Sequence record: PV730302.1
Reading direction: 5' to 3' (one strand)
Source of the DNA: a phage
Length of the DNA stretch: 64,000 nucleotides
The notes beneath the pieces were generated by a model. It did no database searches. It was not told the origin of the DNA and saw only the letters and a program-made list of their open reading frames with translations. Positions 35,255 to 59,797 of this stretch are shown here, piece after piece. The position numbers and the translations under genes are program-made. Position 1 is the stretch's first letter, and each line of letters begins with the position of its first letter.

Positions 35255-35533
35255 TTATAGCTTTTTAAGCTTACGACAATAAGAATAGAACACGTCGTTA
35301 AAATTATGCTCAACCCAATTCCTCTGTATAGGCGAGGTAATGGAAAGCATATAATGAGCTTTAATTAAATCCATCCCATTTTTATTAGGACATTCTTTAT
35401 TATTAGCATTATACGTCGCTGCTACAACCTCTATCTCTCTTTTGTAAGCCACATCATCCATGATAGGCGAAAGAACAATATAAGAAATAGCCACAGCGAA
35501 CGCTAGAATTAAAATCTTTGAATTTAGGTCCAT
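35255..35533 (-). CDS. signal-anchored small protein (92 aa)
   Basis: N-terminal hydrophobic helix. Confidence 0.45.
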   Translation of the reverse strand: MDLNSKILILAFAVAISYIVLSPIMDDVAYKREIEVVAATYNANNKECPNKNGMDLIKAHYMLSITSPIQRNWVEHNFNDVFYSYCRKLKKL

Positions 35534-36329: not shown

Positions 36330-36517
36330 TATTCTTCAACATGCTGTTTGCGTTTATTTTTATCTATAAAAGTATATTCAACATATTCACCAATATACCA
36401 TTTATCGGTGTTATGTTGACTTTTTATAGGGCATTTAGTTACTCGGGTTTCGGACCAGTGTCGAATAATTTCCGCTTTATTTTTAGGGTCAAACGGATGC
36501 GGGTAATGGGCTTTCAT
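36305..36517 (-). CDS. hypothetical protein (70 aa)
   Basis: ORF. Confidence 0.4.
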   Translation of the reverse strand: MKAHYPHPFDPKNKAEIIRHWSETRVTKCPIKSQHNTDKWYIGEYVEYTFIDKNKRKQHVEEYCLKVQWL

Positions 36518-36956
36518 AATCTACCACCACTAAATTAATATCAGGAGTAAACAAATTAATCAATTGATAAACCTTGTCCCAATCACCACCAGCAATACCA
36601 CAACCGATGCGAGGGATATAAATTCTTGGTTTAAACAAAAGACCCTTTGCGGTACGGTTTAATTCTATCATACAGTTTACTAAAGCACCGTAATCAAGAT
36701 TAGGGCCCGGTTCGTATTGGGTGTATAAATTATAGCAAATTTGGCCCTTATTACCTGTGGCTTGAGTAAACGTGCCAAGTTTTTCCAAATGGCCTAAATA
36801 AGTGGTTTTATCGATAGCGAGAATAGGCGGATAAGCCTTAGCCAATTGCCCAGCTACACCTGAACCCATTGTATGGAAACAGTTACACCCGTGAGCAACA
36901 TTATTACCTTGAAGAAACAGGGCGACGATATCGCCCTTAATATAATCAATAATCAT
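36489..36956 (-). CDS. macrodomain protein (ADP-ribose-binding/processing fold)
   Basis: GDIVALF...NVAHGCNCFHTMGSGVAGQ and IYIPRIGCGIAGGDW match macrodomain signature blocks; ATG overlaps the upstream stop (ATGA). Confidence 0.7.
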   Translation of the reverse strand: MIIDYIKGDIVALFLQGNNVAHGCNCFHTMGSGVAGQLAKAYPPILAIDKTTYLGHLEKLGTFTQATGNKGQICYNLYTQYEPGPNLDYGALVNCMIELNRTAKGLLFKPRIYIPRIGCGIAGGDWDKVYQLINLFTPDINLVVVDYESPLPASV

Positions 36957-37309
36957 TTAGAGTTTAGTCCTCGGTTGTAAGAGTCAACGAGTCTGTCTAC
37001 CATAGACGCGCACATTTCTTTGTACTTTTTATCAGATGGAATACATTCAGTAACGTTTAGACGTTGCTCGTATCTTTTAGAAAGAGTTTTCTCTTTCATT
37101 CGGCGATGCTCTACGTCATTCTGGCCATCTTTAAAAGCAGCTGTGATTTTTGAACTGAATTCGATAATGCATTCAGTATTACTCGGATGACAATAATCTT
37201 TTGCTGTACGGGTAGCATACTCGACAATTGAATTATTACTATCATAAACTTGTGACGCTAATACTCCCGGAGCAATCAACATAAGCGCTATAGTCATCTG
37301 CTTAATCAT
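36953..37309 (-). CDS. secreted/periplasmic protein (118 aa)
   Basis: N-terminal signal peptide; four cysteines. Confidence 0.5.
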   Translation of the reverse strand: MIKQMTIALMLIAPGVLASQVYDSNNSIVEYATRTAKDYCHPSNTECIIEFSSKITAAFKDGQNDVEHRRMKEKTLSKRYEQRLNVTECIPSDKKYKEMCASMVDRLVDSYNRGLNSK

Positions 37310-37849
37310 TTAATATACCGCCTCAAACATCTTTTTAGATTTTAGATAATTGGCCTTTTCTAGAACTTCAGAAGCATATTTACTGCCTACTTTGACGTTC
37401 CAGCCCGCATTATAAGAAGCAATCGCTTTTCTCAGGTCACCTTTGTGAACATCAATCCAATAAGACAGTTCAATGTAGGCCCAAGAGGCACTGTTCTGTC
37501 GTTTTTGGACCATACGGATTATTTCTTTATCAGACATCTTCCAACCTACCTGTTGAACACGACTTCTTAACGTAGGCAAGTAATTTTGGAACATGCCATA
37601 AGCATGGTGCTTATCTTTATTTAAACCCTGATTAATTCCGGCGGATGATTCCTGCCATAGTAATCCGGCCATGATATATCCTAATCCTTTTTGATTAGGG
37701 TTTTCTTTGAACTTTCCCGACTTTTGGTATTGTTCACCGAAAGCATACGCATAATGTAAATTATCGAGTTGTTCATTACTGAAAGTAGGCTCTACGCTAT
37801 GGGCAGACATACTAACTGTCAATAGTAAAGTGGCTAATACTTTTTTCAT
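37310..37849 (-). CDS. secreted lytic-transglycosylase-like protein (SLT domain)
   Basis: Signal peptide; LLWQESSAG catalytic-Glu block and AYNAG motif. Confidence 0.5.
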   Translation of the reverse strand: MKKVLATLLLTVSMSAHSVEPTFSNEQLDNLHYAYAFGEQYQKSGKFKENPNQKGLGYIMAGLLWQESSAGINQGLNKDKHHAYGMFQNYLPTLRSRVQQVGWKMSDKEIIRMVQKRQNSASWAYIELSYWIDVHKGDLRKAIASYNAGWNVKVGSKYASEVLEKANYLKSKKMFEAVY

Positions 37850-37861
37850 GAGACCTCATTA

Positions 37862-38320
37862 TTAAAGATAGATTACTTTCGTGCTGGTTTTACCTTCTAA
37901 ACGTTTAGAGTTAACAAATGCCATACGACATTTAAGGGAATATCCTTTATCAGGATGCTTACGGTCTACTGTCATACCCAACCATAAGGTTTTATCGGTA
38001 ATTTCTAGACGCAATGGGCGATACACTTTACCAGGGACAATTTCGGATTCTACATCAGGCAGAGGTTCCTGGATTAAAAATTCATGGATTTCTTTAACAT
38101 GGTTATGGAGTTGCTTGAATAAAGCAAAAACGTATTTTTCGTCGATTTCACGTTGGATAGCACGGTCCAACAAGTGATTAGAGTACTTAATAAAGAAGGC
38201 TGGGACTCCGCTCTTGATGGCGGCTTTTTTGATGGACGTATTCAGTTCACGGAATTCGGTTTCGAACTGACGACGTAATTTATTGCGGCGGATGAATACT
38301 TCTGAATTAATTTCTGACAT
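37862..38320 (-). CDS. regB: endoribonuclease RegB
   Basis: 152 aa; EVFIRRNKLRR and HLLDRAIQREIDE blocks match recalled T4 RegB; leader carries GGAG SD. Confidence 0.8.
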   Translation of the reverse strand: MSEINSEVFIRRNKLRRQFETEFRELNTSIKKAAIKSGVPAFFIKYSNHLLDRAIQREIDEKYVFALFKQLHNHVKEIHEFLIQEPLPDVESEIVPGKVYRPLRLEITDKTLWLGMTVDRKHPDKGYSLKCRMAFVNSKRLEGKTSTKVIYL

Positions 38321-38377
38321 TTTGTAATCTCCTGTAGTTGATAGGTCTATAGTACCACGTCTACAGGAGATGTAAAC
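38321..38377 (-). promoter_or_regulatory. early promoter with SD-complementary spacer arm (regB)
   Basis: GTTTAC-ATCTCCTGTAGACGTGG-TACTAT-AGACCTATCAACTACAGGAGATT; TCTCCTGTAG pairs with CTACAGGAGA. Confidence 0.6.
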
Positions 38378-38381
38378 TGCT

Positions 38382-38591
38382 TTATTCTTGGAATGGGGTA
38401 AGTTTTCCAGCAGCTGAACAAATTTCTACCAGTACAGGGTAAAACTCTTTCACTTGTTCAAGGCGTTGGGCTGCATACTGTACTTCACCTTCTTCGAGAC
38501 AAGCCATTTGGTCGTCAAGCAAGTATTTGTGGTAGCCAGTACAGGCTTCACCGATGATACGCTGGAAATCTTGTAAACTTTCAATTTTCAT
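38382..38591 (-). CDS. hypothetical protein (69 aa)
   Basis: Start at ATG 38591 with GAGGAAAAA SD overlapping the upstream stop. Confidence 0.4.
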   Translation of the reverse strand: MKIESLQDFQRIIGEACTGYHKYLLDDQMACLEEGEVQYAAQRLEQVKEFYPVLVEICSAAGKLTPFQE

Positions 38592-38869
38592 CAGTATTTT
38601 TCCTCGGGTTGGAAAACGGAACGACACGCCCACATGCTTGCTTCTTTCAGACGGTCAATTGCATTACGAATCTGGGTGATGCGTTCATGAGCCTGGTCTA
38701 GTTCTTGTTCAGAAACCTCTTCGGTATCTAAGTTCATATAATGAGTAACATGTTCTTCTTCCAGAGCTTTAAACATTAACCCAAGACGAACTTCAGCATC
38801 TTTGATAGCGTTTACTTTACCGATTTTATCGTCGGTATGCGGCTTATAACCCTTGATATCTTCAATCAT
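38591..38869 (-). CDS. hypothetical protein (92 aa)
   Basis: ORF. Confidence 0.45.
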   Translation of the reverse strand: MIEDIKGYKPHTDDKIGKVNAIKDAEVRLGLMFKALEEEHVTHYMNLDTEEVSEQELDQAHERITQIRNAIDRLKEASMWACRSVFQPEEKY

Positions 38870-39084
38870 TTCACTTCCTCGCCAGTTGCGATATCATATT
38901 CTACCAAACGAAGGCCTTCAGTCCAACCTTGCACGGAGATATAGGTAGTCGGGTAAATCATTTCTTTACCATTCCACCGACCGCCATCCCAGACTTCCAG
39001 AAAGTCTTGTTCACCTGGTCCATTAAGCCATTCAACAAATCTTTTCAGAGCTTCTTCAGAACCTTCAATTGTCAATTTAGACAT
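38866..39084 (-). CDS. hypothetical protein (72 aa)
   Basis: ORF. Confidence 0.45.
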   Translation of the reverse strand: MSKLTIEGSEEALKRFVEWLNGPGEQDFLEVWDGGRWNGKEMIYPTTYISVQGWTEGLRLVEYDIATGEEVK

Positions 39085-39373
39085 ATTTTTTCCAATCAGA
39101 AATCATATGAATCTCTTGGTCATAAGTCAAGAGACTACGAGCAATAATACCCTTACAAGGCCCTGAGATGAACTCGAGAGTGAAGTAAGGAACCTGTTTC
39201 ATTAATCGGATACTAGGAGCATGACATCTAAAACGAGAGCCCTTAAAGGGCCCTGTCATGAATACATATTCCAATGGGTAGAAATAAGCATATTCGAAAT
39301 TTGCAGTAAGGTCCTCTCTTCGAACCTTACGTGAGAAATAACAGAACTCAAAAAGTTCTTCATCAGTCATCAT
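39077..39373 (-). CDS. hypothetical protein (98 aa)
   Basis: Start at ATG 39373 overlapping the upstream stop (ATGA); SD AGGAAT. Confidence 0.45.
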   Translation of the reverse strand: MMTDEELFEFCYFSRKVRREDLTANFEYAYFYPLEYVFMTGPFKGSRFRCHAPSIRLMKQVPYFTLEFISGPCKGIIARSLLTYDQEIHMISDWKKYV

Positions 39374-39897
39374 TGCATTCCTATCACAAAGAACAGAGGC
39401 AAAGGCTTGTCGCCTTGGCACATAAATTTATTAATCATTACCTGGTAAGCTTCATAGAACTTATCCATCGCTGGAAGGCGCATTGGCTCTTCGATAATAA
39501 TCAATAATCGAGTAACAGATAGTCCACGATACTTATGGAAATTGTCTTCATCAAGGAAACTGCGCACAGTATCATAGACAACAAAACCAGGACCTTCGAC
39601 TTGGAGATGTGGGTGTGCCTTAGAAACCTGTTTTATTACATTACAAATTTCTCGCGAGCGATGCGAAGAACTCGACATAACAATCACATCATTACCCTTG
39701 GAAACCCAATCAGCGGCGAACTGAGCAAGGGCACTTGTTTTACCTGTTTGGCGTCCGCCATCAAGTCGAAGAGTACCAAACTCTTGCATTCTTGAAGCAG
39801 GTTCATACCATGTGTATTGGTCTGAGTCTAAACGTTCAATGGCGCGTTCAGCGAAGGCGTGCATTAAGGTTAGATAAATGGGAGTTAAAAATTTCAT
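39370..39897 (-). CDS. small P-loop NTPase-like protein (175 aa)
   Basis: Walker A GGRQTGKTS and hydrophobic-acidic LLIIIEEP Walker-B-like strand. Confidence 0.5.
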   Translation of the reverse strand: MKFLTPIYLTLMHAFAERAIERLDSDQYTWYEPASRMQEFGTLRLDGGRQTGKTSALAQFAADWVSKGNDVIVMSSSSHRSREICNVIKQVSKAHPHLQVEGPGFVVYDTVRSFLDEDNFHKYRGLSVTRLLIIIEEPMRLPAMDKFYEAYQVMINKFMCQGDKPLPLFFVIGMQ

Positions 39898-41575: not shown

Positions 41576-41974
41576 TTATTTGTAGGTCTTCATCCAATTC
41601 TTGAACAAAGCCGCGACGTCTTTCTCTTTAACGTTCAGTTTAATGTCCAACATTTTACCACCGGCAGCACGTGTCTGACGAATCTTAGCAGTACCGGTTT
41701 CGCCATTCCACTCAACATAATACTGCCCAGTGTTCATTGCAATACCATCGCCGTAGTCTTCATTTTTAGAAGTTGTGAAGGCCAGCTTCATAGTCTTAGA
41801 TACACGAGCCTGCATGCCAGTCTGAAGGGCATTACGAACGCGAATAACTTGAGGAGTGGCCTGGGTCAGGTTCTCATTCAGTTCTTCAGTGAACTCTTCA
41901 GATTCAAACATCGCCAAAAGTTCTTTAGATGCAGGAATTACATTCTCTGCGATAAATTCATTATAAGTTTTCAT
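41576..41974 (-). CDS. internal-protein-like capsid cargo (CTS-tagged, 132 aa)
   Basis: N-terminus [10 protein letters not shown]. Confidence 0.65.
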
Positions 41975-42455
41975 ATGCTTTCCAAGTACCTGTTTTAAAT
42001 GTTGAAATCACGCGCTTAGCACGATTAGGAGTTTGTTTATACCAACGGGATTGAGCCAGGTTAACTGCCGCATCGTTCCAACGTTTCTGTTGGAGCATAC
42101 GTAAAGAGTTAGTGAACCCTGCTACGCCTGCTTCACCCATTTGGAAGACCATGTTAATTAAAGCACAACGACGAACTTCGTCCAGTACATCATAAACAGG
42201 TTTCAATTTAGGATTACGCAGAATAGCTCTACGAGCATTTTCAACCGATCGGTTAAAGAGTTGTTCAGCTTCAGCCATAGTAATACGACCATTACAAACT
42301 CGACCCATAAGCTTATCAAGTTCAGCACGAGCAACATCTTTAGAAGGGTTCTTAGTAATCAATTGGCCAATACCAATAGTCCAATAACCTTCAGTGTCTT
42401 TATAAAGATTTAAATCAAGACCTTCGTCTTGACGTAACATATCAAAAATATCCAT
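41961..42455 (-). CDS. e: lysozyme (endolysin) gene e
   Basis: 164 aa, about 80 percent identical to recalled T4 lysozyme; catalytic E11 and D20 conserved. Confidence 0.95.
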
Positions 42456-58010: not shown

Positions 58011-59797
58011 TGATTAACATGTCTGATAATGTAAGTTGGTTCGTCGGTGTAGTTGAAGACCGAATGGACCCGCTCAAACAAGGCCGAGTACGCGTGCGCG
58101 TATGGGGTATGCATCCCTATGAAAAGGTACAAGGCCCTGTAAAAGGTCTTCGTACAGAAGATTTACCATGGATGTCGGTATTAATGCCTACATCTTCGGC
58201 CTCTGTTTCAGGTATACAAACCGCTATGACAGGTATGGTCCCAGGTACACAAGTTTATGGCCACTTTCTTGATAAGTGGAAATTAAACGGACTTGTCCTT
58301 GGTACATACGGTTCCGCTTCAAGACAAAAGGCTAACCCTAATGAAGGTTTTAGCGACCCAACAGGCCAATACCCACTTTATTTAGGTAATGATGCCGCGG
58401 CTTTAAACCGAGGTGGTGAAGTTGGATATGATGCCACTTCTAACGTAATCCAGGATTCTAATCTAGATTTGGGTCTTAATCCTGATGGTTTAGATTTAAG
58501 TCAAGTCAAACCTGACGATAATCCTAATTTCACAATAGAAAACATGCTTCACCGTGATGAAGGGCTTAGACTGAAGGTATATTGGGACACCGAAGGATAC
58601 CCTACTATAGGTATAGGTCACCTTATTACGCCACAACCTATTAGAGATATGAACCAAATAAACAAAATATTGTCTAAACAAATAGGTCGAGAAGTTAAAG
58701 GTAACCCTGGTGCAATATCAATGGATGAGGCTTCTAAATTATTCCAAGAAGACCTTAAAAAAGTCCAAAGCGATATAGGTCGACATAGTGTTGTGGGTCC
58801 GGTTTACAATAAAGAAAACCGTTCAAGACAAATGGCTCTTGAAAACATGGCTTTCCAAATGGGATTGGGTGGACTGGCTAAATTTAGAACCATGCTCGCT
58901 GCAATGTTAGCCGGAGATTATAAGAAAGCATTTGATGCCGCTCGTGATTCTGTGTGGTTTAACCAAACTAAAGGTCGTGCATCAAGGGTATCAATGATTA
59001 TCCTTACAGGTAACATGGAATCATACGGTATTATGGCCCCTAAAGAAAGGTCATTTAAAGGGCGTTCGTATAGAATGATTCAAACTTTTGCCGCACCTGC
59101 AAATTCAGACCCAGCCGACCCATGGACCCCAGAAGATACAAGGATTCTGTTTAAAGAACCCGAATCAAGTTATAAGGGCGAATATCCTTATGTGCAGACA
59201 ATGCAAACTGAAGGTGGGCATATCCAAGAATTCGATAACACCCCAGGGCAAGAACGTTATCGTTTAATCCATCCTACAGGTAGTTATGAAGAAGTTGCTC
59301 CTGATGGACGTAAAACTTCTAAGACGGTAGCCGACGGATATTATATGACCCAAGGCGATTCTAATACTTATGTCGGCGGTAATAATAAAGTCAACATAGG
59401 CGGTGATGAAACCTATTATAATATGGCAAACGTGCGCCGTCAAACTGACGGGTCCGAAAGCATCCATATTCGTGGTAATGAAACCAAAACAGTAGAAGGT
59501 GATGGAACTCTGCTTGTTAAAGGAAATGTTAAAATAGTTATTATGGGTACTGCTGATATAACTGTTGAACAAGAAGCATATATTACGGTTGAAAAAGATA
59601 CAACAGTTAATGTCAACCAGAATGCAGATATAAGCGTTAAACAAAAGGCCACAATCAATGCTCAAAATATGGATGTAAATGTCGAACAAGATTTAAATTT
59701 TGCAGCGACGAACATTAATTTAAACGCATCAAATACTGTGCATATGGATGGCGGTTCATTAGCTAAAGTATCTGGTGGCAACGTACAGGTCGGTTAA
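58010..59797 (+). CDS. 5: baseplate hub/cell-puncturing protein gp5 with lysozyme domain
   Basis: 595 aa; N-terminal NVSWFVGVVEDRMDPLKQGRVRVRVWG, central T4-lysozyme-like domain, C-terminal V-x-G-x repeat beta-helix. Confidence 0.93.
   Translation: MINMSDNVSWFVGVVEDRMDPLKQGRVRVRVWGMHPYEKVQGPVKGLRTEDLPWMSVLMPTSSASVSGIQTAMTGMVPGTQVYGHFLDKWKLNGLVLGTYGSASRQKANPNEGFSDPTGQYPLYLGNDAAALNRGGEVGYDATSNVIQDSNLDLGLNPDGLDLSQVKPDDNPNFTIENMLHRDEGLRLKVYWDTEGYPTIGIGHLITPQPIRDMNQINKILSKQIGREVKGNPGAISMDEASKLFQEDLKKVQSDIGRHSVVGPVYNKENRSRQMALENMAFQMGLGGLAKFRTMLAAMLAGDYKKAFDAARDSVWFNQTKGRASRVSMIILTGNMESYGIMAPKERSFKGRSYRMIQTFAAPANSDPADPWTPEDTRILFKEPESSYKGEYPYVQTMQTEGGHIQEFDNTPGQERYRLIHPTGSYEEVAPDGRKTSKTVADGYYMTQGDSNTYVGGNNKVNIGGDETYYNMANVRRQTDGSESIHIRGNETKTVEGDGTLLVKGNVKIVIMGTADITVEQEAYITVEKDTTVNVNQNADISVKQKATINAQNMDVNVEQDLNFAATNINLNASNTVHMDGGSLAKVSGGNVQVG

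Follow-up and report, generated by a model that had tools for sequence, protein, structure and literature searches.

In bacteriophage T4 the gene vs.1 lies between regB and vs, and a similarity of its product to the SLT family of lytic transglycosylases was published by 2006. Nolan et al. reported a marginal SLT match in six T4-type genomes, which in their view corroborated earlier PSI-BLAST matches for T4 vs.1 (PMC1524935). The neighboring protein Vs has a textbook role, binding of the host valyl-tRNA synthetase (ValRS), known only from 1970s biochemistry (cited in PMC8076793), and a recent HIDEN-SEQ preprint states that its "biological role is not known" (10.1101/2025.11.20.689424). Here we describe the corresponding locus in a 64,000-nucleotide (nt) window of phage sequence record PV730302.1; all coordinates are positions in this window, and both genes are on its minus strand. 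We conclude that Vs.1 is probably a Sec-exported lytic transglycosylase of the GH23 / family-1 type that serves accessory peptidoglycan remodelling and is not a lysis endolysin.

The interval 36953..37849 is filled exactly by two adjacent open reading frames (ORFs), one of 179 amino acids (aa) at 37310..37849 and one of 118 aa at 36953..37309. An earlier annotation made from the letters of the DNA (below, the sequence-only reading) had placed two consecutive genes here. Its coordinates stand, but the strand is the minus strand, so the SLT-like gene (37849 to 37310) is transcribed first and the 118-aa gene (37309 to 36953) follows; the pair had not been recognised as T4 vs.1 and vs. The source phage is a T4-type myovirus of the JS98/IME08/QL01 group, and about 2 kb around the two genes is 96-98% identical to phages of that group. 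The 179-aa ORF matches phrog_600 ("unknown function") over residues 1-177 (E 6e-67), and the 118-aa ORF matches phrog_1256, "valyl tRNA synthetase modifier" (E 3.8e-34). In tblastn searches T4 Vs.1 aligned to the window over its full length (67% identity over 180 aa) and T4 Vs at 45% identity; the T4 gene order regB - vs.1 - vs - tk.4 ... tk is kept, and the block from tk through e is collinear with T4. On the strength of these family matches, gene order and identities, the two ORFs are, by sequence, orthologues of T4 vs.1 and vs. T4 Vs.1 (T4p112, UniProt P13311 / Y06E_BPT4) has the same regB-vs position, signal peptide and motifs as the window protein and differs from it by ordinary sequence divergence only.

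37310..37849, minus strand: vs.1 orthologue, 179 aa, predicted exported single-domain GH23 / family-1-type lytic transglycosylase
36953..37309, minus strand: vs orthologue, 118 aa, "valyl-tRNA synthetase modifier" (phrog_1256; PF26829 in homologues)

The assignment of Vs.1 is carried by its predicted structure and by its family. An AlphaFold model built from 41 sequences is confident (predicted local distance difference test, pLDDT, 89.4; predicted template modelling score, pTM, 0.82) and has the lysozyme-like alpha-helical catalytic fold of GH23, and the top Foldseek matches of the model are MltD, Slt and GH23 enzymes, with probabilities of 0.99-1.0. The Pfam SLT profile (PF01464, gathering cut-off 21.3 bits) was run on a set of 42 diverse Vs.1 homologues with 42-89% identity; 41 of them match at E<=0.1 and 15 at E<=1e-4, the best at 1.3e-7. 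Many homologue clusters carry a precomputed PF01464 match, and names such as "transglycosylase SLT domain-containing protein" and "lytic transglycosylase" are already in use for many GenBank/UniRef entries. On the modelled structure, vs.1 can confidently be called an SLT gene even though the window sequence itself scores below the Pfam threshold. Computation bears out the SLT/transglycosylase interpretation as far as it can, but the prediction was already in print.

Four motif blocks, listed below, define the putative active site. Ten residues (W65, E67, S69, G85, Q88, N89, Y146, N147, G149 and Y158) are invariant in 42/42 homologues.

37637..37657, minus strand: motif I, W65-Q-E67-S-S-A-G71; E67 (nt 37649..37651) is the predicted sole catalytic acid/base
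37583..37600, minus strand: motif II, Y84-G-M-F-Q-N89, a variant of the family-1 G-L-M-Q motif; G85, Q88 and N89 invariant
37403..37417, minus strand: motif III, S145-Y-N-A-G149, the A-Y-N-x-G motif of family-1 lytic transglycosylases; Y146, N147 and G149 invariant
37376..37378, minus strand: motif IV, Tyr158 in G-x-x-Y-A-x-x-V-L, present in 42/42; aligned with the Y of "GGDYSNDVV" of g-type lysozyme

Residue correspondence with g-type lysozymes is taken from family-profile alignments (E 0.36-3) that were used for this purpose only. Motif I, in which E67 is found in all 42 sequences and S68 in 41, sits at the C-terminal end of helix 57-68 of the predicted model. It aligns with the "RES" block of g-type lysozymes, whose Glu we take to be the catalytic Glu73, and by hhalign with the QES block of Escherichia coli Slt70, whose Glu is presumably the catalytic E478. 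The middle two residues of motif II vary, and the block aligns with SGLMQ of Slt70 and FGLMQ of g-type lysozyme. Motif III, aligned with AYNAG of g-type lysozyme, begins with S in 39 homologues and with A in two. The sequence-only reading was right about WQESSAG (residues 65-71, nt 37637..37657) but misread the other block as "AYNAG"; the actual residues 144-149 are A-S-Y-N-A-G, hence SYNAG. The correspondence of Y158 with the "RGYVKNVL" segment of Slt70 was drawn by eye only. Acidic residues are conserved in at least 80% of the family at two positions, E67 and E127, and residues 72-84 are variable. Homologues in Felixounavirus, where the gene adjoins rIIA/rIIB, and in Kuttervirus have about 30% identity and keep the same four blocks as well as a signal peptide. 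This recurrence, together with ten residues invariant down to 42% identity, argues that the motifs did not arise by chance.

Both proteins begin with a signal-peptide-like segment, MKKVLATLLLTVSMSAHS followed by VEP in Vs.1 and MIKQMTIALMLIAPGVLA followed by SQV in Vs. A rule-based scan (K/R n-region, hydrophobic core of 10-15 residues, small-x-small site at about residue 18-22, no lipobox) found the pattern in 42/42 Vs.1-family and 28/28 Vs-family sequences. The residues of the segment vary freely across homologues while its character is kept, as expected of a Sec signal peptide. The signal peptides claimed for both proteins in the sequence-only reading are thus a family-wide pattern, and the predicted cleavage would leave a mature Vs.1 of about 161 aa, 18.6 kDa and pI 9.4. 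Residues 1-20 have low pLDDT (58-62) in the Vs.1 model. None of the 42 Vs.1 and 28 Vs sequences has a lipobox, and we discarded the idea that they are lipoproteins.

37796..37849, minus strand: predicted Sec signal peptide of Vs.1, residues 1-18, cleavage between AHS and VEP (rule-based scan)
37256..37309, minus strand: predicted signal peptide of Vs, residues 1-18, cleavage between VLA and SQV (pattern in 28/28 family members)

The window also encodes two other murein enzymes of T4-type phages, the holin-released endolysin e and the virion-borne gp5. Both carry PF00959, and a BLASTP comparison of e with Vs.1 gave E 0.24, which is not significant; Vs.1 is distinct from both, as had been claimed. 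The three predicted glycan-strand-cleaving enzymes (e, the gp5 domain and Vs.1) all lie in the window, within 22 kb.

41964..42455, minus strand: endolysin e, PF00959 (GH24)
58535..59026, plus strand: gene 5 lysozyme domain, PF00959 (GH24)

A mechanism can be proposed on this basis. Vs.1 and Vs would be expressed from the minus strand within the tightly packed regB-vs.1-vs-tk.4 early/middle unit, and Vs.1 would carry a Sec signal peptide whose removal at about residue 18 releases a basic 161-residue single-domain GH23 enzyme into the periplasm. There Glu67, the sole conserved carboxylate at the active-site position, would protonate the beta-1,4 bond between N-acetylmuramic acid and N-acetylglucosamine (MurNAc-beta-1,4-GlcNAc) and then activate the MurNAc C6-OH, leaving 1,6-anhydroMurNAc ends. 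Vs.1 would contribute accessory peptidoglycan remodelling and leave lysis to the holin-dependent GH24 enzyme e, because it would reach the wall long before lysis, because it is dispensable in T4 and because the T4 holin t is essential. Its likeliest role would be limited turnover or loosening of murein in the infected cell once host autolysins are no longer replenished, with a modest effect that depends on host and medium; candidate purposes are wall expansion or turnover sustained after host shut-off, or help on particular hosts.

Published T4 data give a first view of expression and fitness. T4 vs.1 and vs are classed as early at the RNA level and middle at the protein level, and both proteins have been detected by mass spectrometry (PMC9697503 supplement); the sequence-only reading had placed the genes "among early genes". 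In the HIDEN-SEQ dataset, T4 vs.1 carries transposons at 46/52 TA sites and is classed as "Non-essential", while holin t is essential (10.1101/2025.11.20.689424). In liquid LB, vs.1 and vs have mean insertion counts of 22.6 and 26.6, compared with 178.6 for regB, 289.6 for tk.4 and 652 for vs.3 (10.1101/2025.11.20.689424); re-reading of the published tables thus places vs.1 and vs about 10-fold below neighboring genes. From LB to M9, vs falls significantly (log2 fold change, log2FC, -2.19) and vs.1 has a log2FC of -0.87 (p 0.0055, adjusted p 0.155), and on the uropathogenic (UPEC) isolate CFE299 vs.1 has a log2FC of -1.20 (adjusted p 0.015) (10.1101/2025.11.20.689424). These values hint at a modest medium- and host-dependent fitness signature that vs.1 and vs share, with no counterpart in their neighbors. 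The main text of the preprint discusses vs and makes no mention of vs.1 (10.1101/2025.11.20.689424).

Several results weigh against our reading of Vs.1 or limit it. The profile search against the SLT family that the sequence-only reading had proposed gives a clear signal at the family level, with 41/42 matching at E<=0.1, but the window sequence itself scores 15.6 bits (E 0.012), under the gathering score of 21.3. The Foldseek matches have E values of only about 0.015 and TM scores of about 0.5; the hhalign comparison of the family with the Slt70 catalytic domain is weak (E 0.11 over 32 columns), though in the right register; and against PDB sequences the family profile reaches g-type lysozymes at a non-significant E of 0.36-3. 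The signal cleavage was called by simple rules, and no report of muralytic activity of any Vs.1 was found in the searchable literature. The lower transposon counts in vs.1 could in part reflect polarity on vs; insertions in regB, further upstream, do not have the fitness effect. Searches for Vs.1 or Vs in NCBIfam, for Vs.1 in PDB sequences by single-sequence phmmer, and for a localisation or phenotype paper on Vs.1 found nothing. A metacaspase, the best PDB match of the family profile (E 0.25, non-significant), was judged spurious.

Within the GH23 fold, Vs.1 might instead be an exported muramidase, a hydrolase resembling goose-type lysozyme rather than a lytic transglycosylase. We consider this unlikely. 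The additional acidic residues of goose-type lysozymes, which we take to be Asp86 and Asp97 of goose lysozyme, between the equivalents of E67 and G85, are not conserved in Vs.1 (no D/E at >=80% beyond E67 and E127); most homologues have K, P, G or N in place of D79 of the window protein, and the ES...G-x-x-Q...YNAG...Y pattern fits family-1 lytic transglycosylases. Since no acidic position is conserved between E67 and G85, the alignment favors lytic-transglycosylase chemistry over hydrolysis. The export step is open to a different objection, namely that the N-terminus is a membrane anchor, a signal-arrest-release (SAR)-type segment or no export signal, which would make Vs.1 a tethered or cytoplasmic backup endolysin in need of holin or depolarisation. 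For many years T4 RI was credited with a signal-anchor of the SAR type, which later proved cleavable (PMC8385771), so such calls can err, and the cleavage of Vs.1 is likewise a heuristic call. Against an anchor, the hydrophobic core of about 10-13 residues is too short for a membrane span, and in every homologue a small-x-small site is followed by a polar mature N-terminus, while the sequence of the segment varies and its character is kept; we judge this explanation improbable.

A further explanation, to which we give very little weight, makes Vs.1 a catalytically silent murein-binding protein, acting as a decoy, a sensor or a blocker of the lysozyme of superinfecting phage. It would fit the lack of any reported activity and the dispensability of the gene in T4 (HIDEN-SEQ), and spackle, which is annotated as periplasmic, is an example of the envelope proteins without enzymatic function that T4 exports. 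However, neither the catalytic Glu nor any substrate-binding motif varies among the 42 sequences or across three phage lineages, which is the signature of selection on catalysis. An exported lytic transglycosylase remains the reading that we prefer, and all in-silico tests run (family SLT matches, the invariant Glu and the family-wide export signal) support the exported SLT-type murein-cleaving enzyme that the sequence-only reading had predicted. The analysis shows that the genes are orthologues of the T4 pair, that Vs.1 has the GH23 fold and is distinct from e and gp5, and that the motifs and the export signal are conserved. Expression and dispensability come from published T4 work, while cleavage of the signal peptide, transglycosylase as opposed to hydrolase chemistry and the physiological role are inferred.

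Compared with Slt70/Slt, MltC, MltD, MltE (EmtA) and MltF, Vs.1 is a bare 161-residue soluble domain with no lipobox. Unlike bacterial family-1 enzymes it has no superhelical, LysM or ABC-type accessory domains; it has an extra conserved N-terminal helix (residues 25-38) and G-M-F-Q-N in motif II, and its sequence similarity to them is marginal. The small specialised lytic transglycosylase EtgA has a second catalytic Asp (D60N entry 4xp8) with no conserved counterpart in Vs.1. VirB1, IpgF and P19 are likewise small lytic transglycosylases dedicated to secretion or conjugation systems, and we know of no envelope-spanning machine that needs Vs.1. Among phage enzymes, T7 gp16 and phiKZ gp144 are virion transglycosylases that act at entry, whereas Vs.1 carries its own signal peptide; the secreted Kayvirus Tgl was grouped with the other phage murein enzymes compared with Vs.1. 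Overall, Vs.1 reads more like a host housekeeping or "specialised" small transglycosylase than like an endolysin.

Homologues of vs.1 are present in 2,012 of 50,697 phage records searched by tblastn and span at least three phage lineages. No vs.1 match was found by tblastn in 72,556 plasmid records, where it was sought as a conjugation-type specialised transglycosylase. When genomes from 185,579 species of bacteria and archaea were scanned for the pattern, one vs.1 locus came up, itself on a T4-like phage contig. This single match (L006, CAVJPU010000002.1) is a 167-kb contig labelled "bacterium isolate" that carries vs.1 and rI homologues, and is probably the genome of a T4-like phage that was binned with bacteria.

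The second gene presents a different problem. PF26829 (ValRS_modifier) is carried by 28/28 Vs homologues, and four Cys are invariant in the family (C40, C47, C89 and C100). The Vs model (pLDDT 76.8) is a four-helix bundle in which each cysteine pair flanks a helix-helix turn, an arrangement that, in the model, appears suited to disulfide staples in an oxidising periplasm. A Foldseek search of this model against the PDB returned generic helical bundles only (E > 0.8, probability < 0.25), and no fold was assigned. For T4 Vs the precursor has a mass of 13.1 kDa and the predicted mature form about 11.0 kDa. We found no mention of a signal peptide on Vs in the literature, and the SignalP supplement of Nolan et al. 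covers novel ORFs only (PMC1524935). Predicted export and four invariant Cys conflict with a cytoplasmic target such as ValRS, and on this sequence evidence the inconsistency appears real.

An exhaustive Vs profile search of 1.84 billion representative proteins gave 8 matches only. The two remotest relatives, on metagenome contigs L007 (3453..4327) and L008 (3..781), with profile E values of 7e-5 and 3e-4, keep both cysteine pairs and the export signal, which in one of them (P0132) takes the form of the lipobox LSGC, the sole lipobox found. Both lie directly downstream of a vs.1 homologue, with overlapping start and stop codons, and these upstream homologues still share the invariant motif blocks with the window Vs.1. 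As Vs is near the detection limit where the adjoining vs.1 keeps its motifs, Vs evolves much faster than Vs.1.

Whether the two proteins work together is a separate matter. We rejected vs as an obligatory partner of vs.1, the latter being found in 2,012 phage records and vs in 796. In Felixounavirus, Kuttervirus and Aeromonas phage phiAS4, vs.1 is present with no Vs-like or signal-bearing gene downstream, which indicates that Vs is not required for Vs.1 function in general. It is conceivable, if doubtful, that Vs is an exported, disulfide-stapled four-helix periplasmic partner or regulator of Vs.1. The ValRS association would then be secondary or due to compartment mixing on breakage, and the pair would form a two-component wall module whose loss is costly in minimal medium and on some natural hosts.

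The genes around vs.1 and vs, and candidate expression signals, are as follows.

37862..38320, minus strand: regB endoribonuclease (PF10715, E 6e-69), upstream gene of the regB-vs.1-vs-tk.4 transcription unit
36489..36956, minus strand: tk.4 macro-domain gene (Pfam Macro, E 1.3e-7), downstream gene of the same unit
37854..37857, minus strand: GAGG ribosome-binding site, 4 nt before the vs.1 ATG and inside the 12-nt gap after the regB stop
38349..38376, minus strand: sigma-70-like site TTTACA-16-TACTAT with TG, upstream of regB; candidate early promoter from a consensus scan only

The vs ATG directly adjoins the vs.1 TAA, whereas in T4 the two ORFs overlap by 8 nt, and the 3' end of vs overlaps the start of tk.4 by 4 nt. 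In the promoter/terminator consensus scan, sites in the region were no more frequent than in shuffled sequence, and they were not used as evidence. The macro-domain protein of the window is an orthologue of T4 tk.4, recently named AdfM, an anti-DarT2 factor thought to strip ADP-ribose off DNA (10.1101/2025.11.20.689424). Just downstream of tk, where T4 has rI.1 and rI, a 92-aa ORF on the minus strand (35255..35533) has an N-terminal hydrophobic segment and matches phrog_6298 (unknown function, E 4e-37). Neither T4 rI nor rI.1 hit it by tblastn, and it may encode a diverged protein of the lysis-inhibition region that resides in the membrane or periplasm. In the regB-denV block (38382..39897, minus strand), tblastn with T4 vs.5 and with vs.6 (the glycyl-radical GrcA-like gene) found nothing. 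The window carries homologues of T4 vs.3, vs.4, vs.7 and vs.8.

For annotation the outcome is routine, as the genes are vs.1 and vs. T4-type phages encode three distinct predicted enzymes that cleave glycan strands (e, the gp5 domain and Vs.1), of which Vs.1 alone is predicted to be self-exported early in infection. With its predicted export, Vs stands in concrete conflict with a functional assignment that is 50 years old. The remaining interest lies in the biology of a very widespread, predicted self-exported phage transglycosylase and of a Vs protein that is predicted to be periplasmic.

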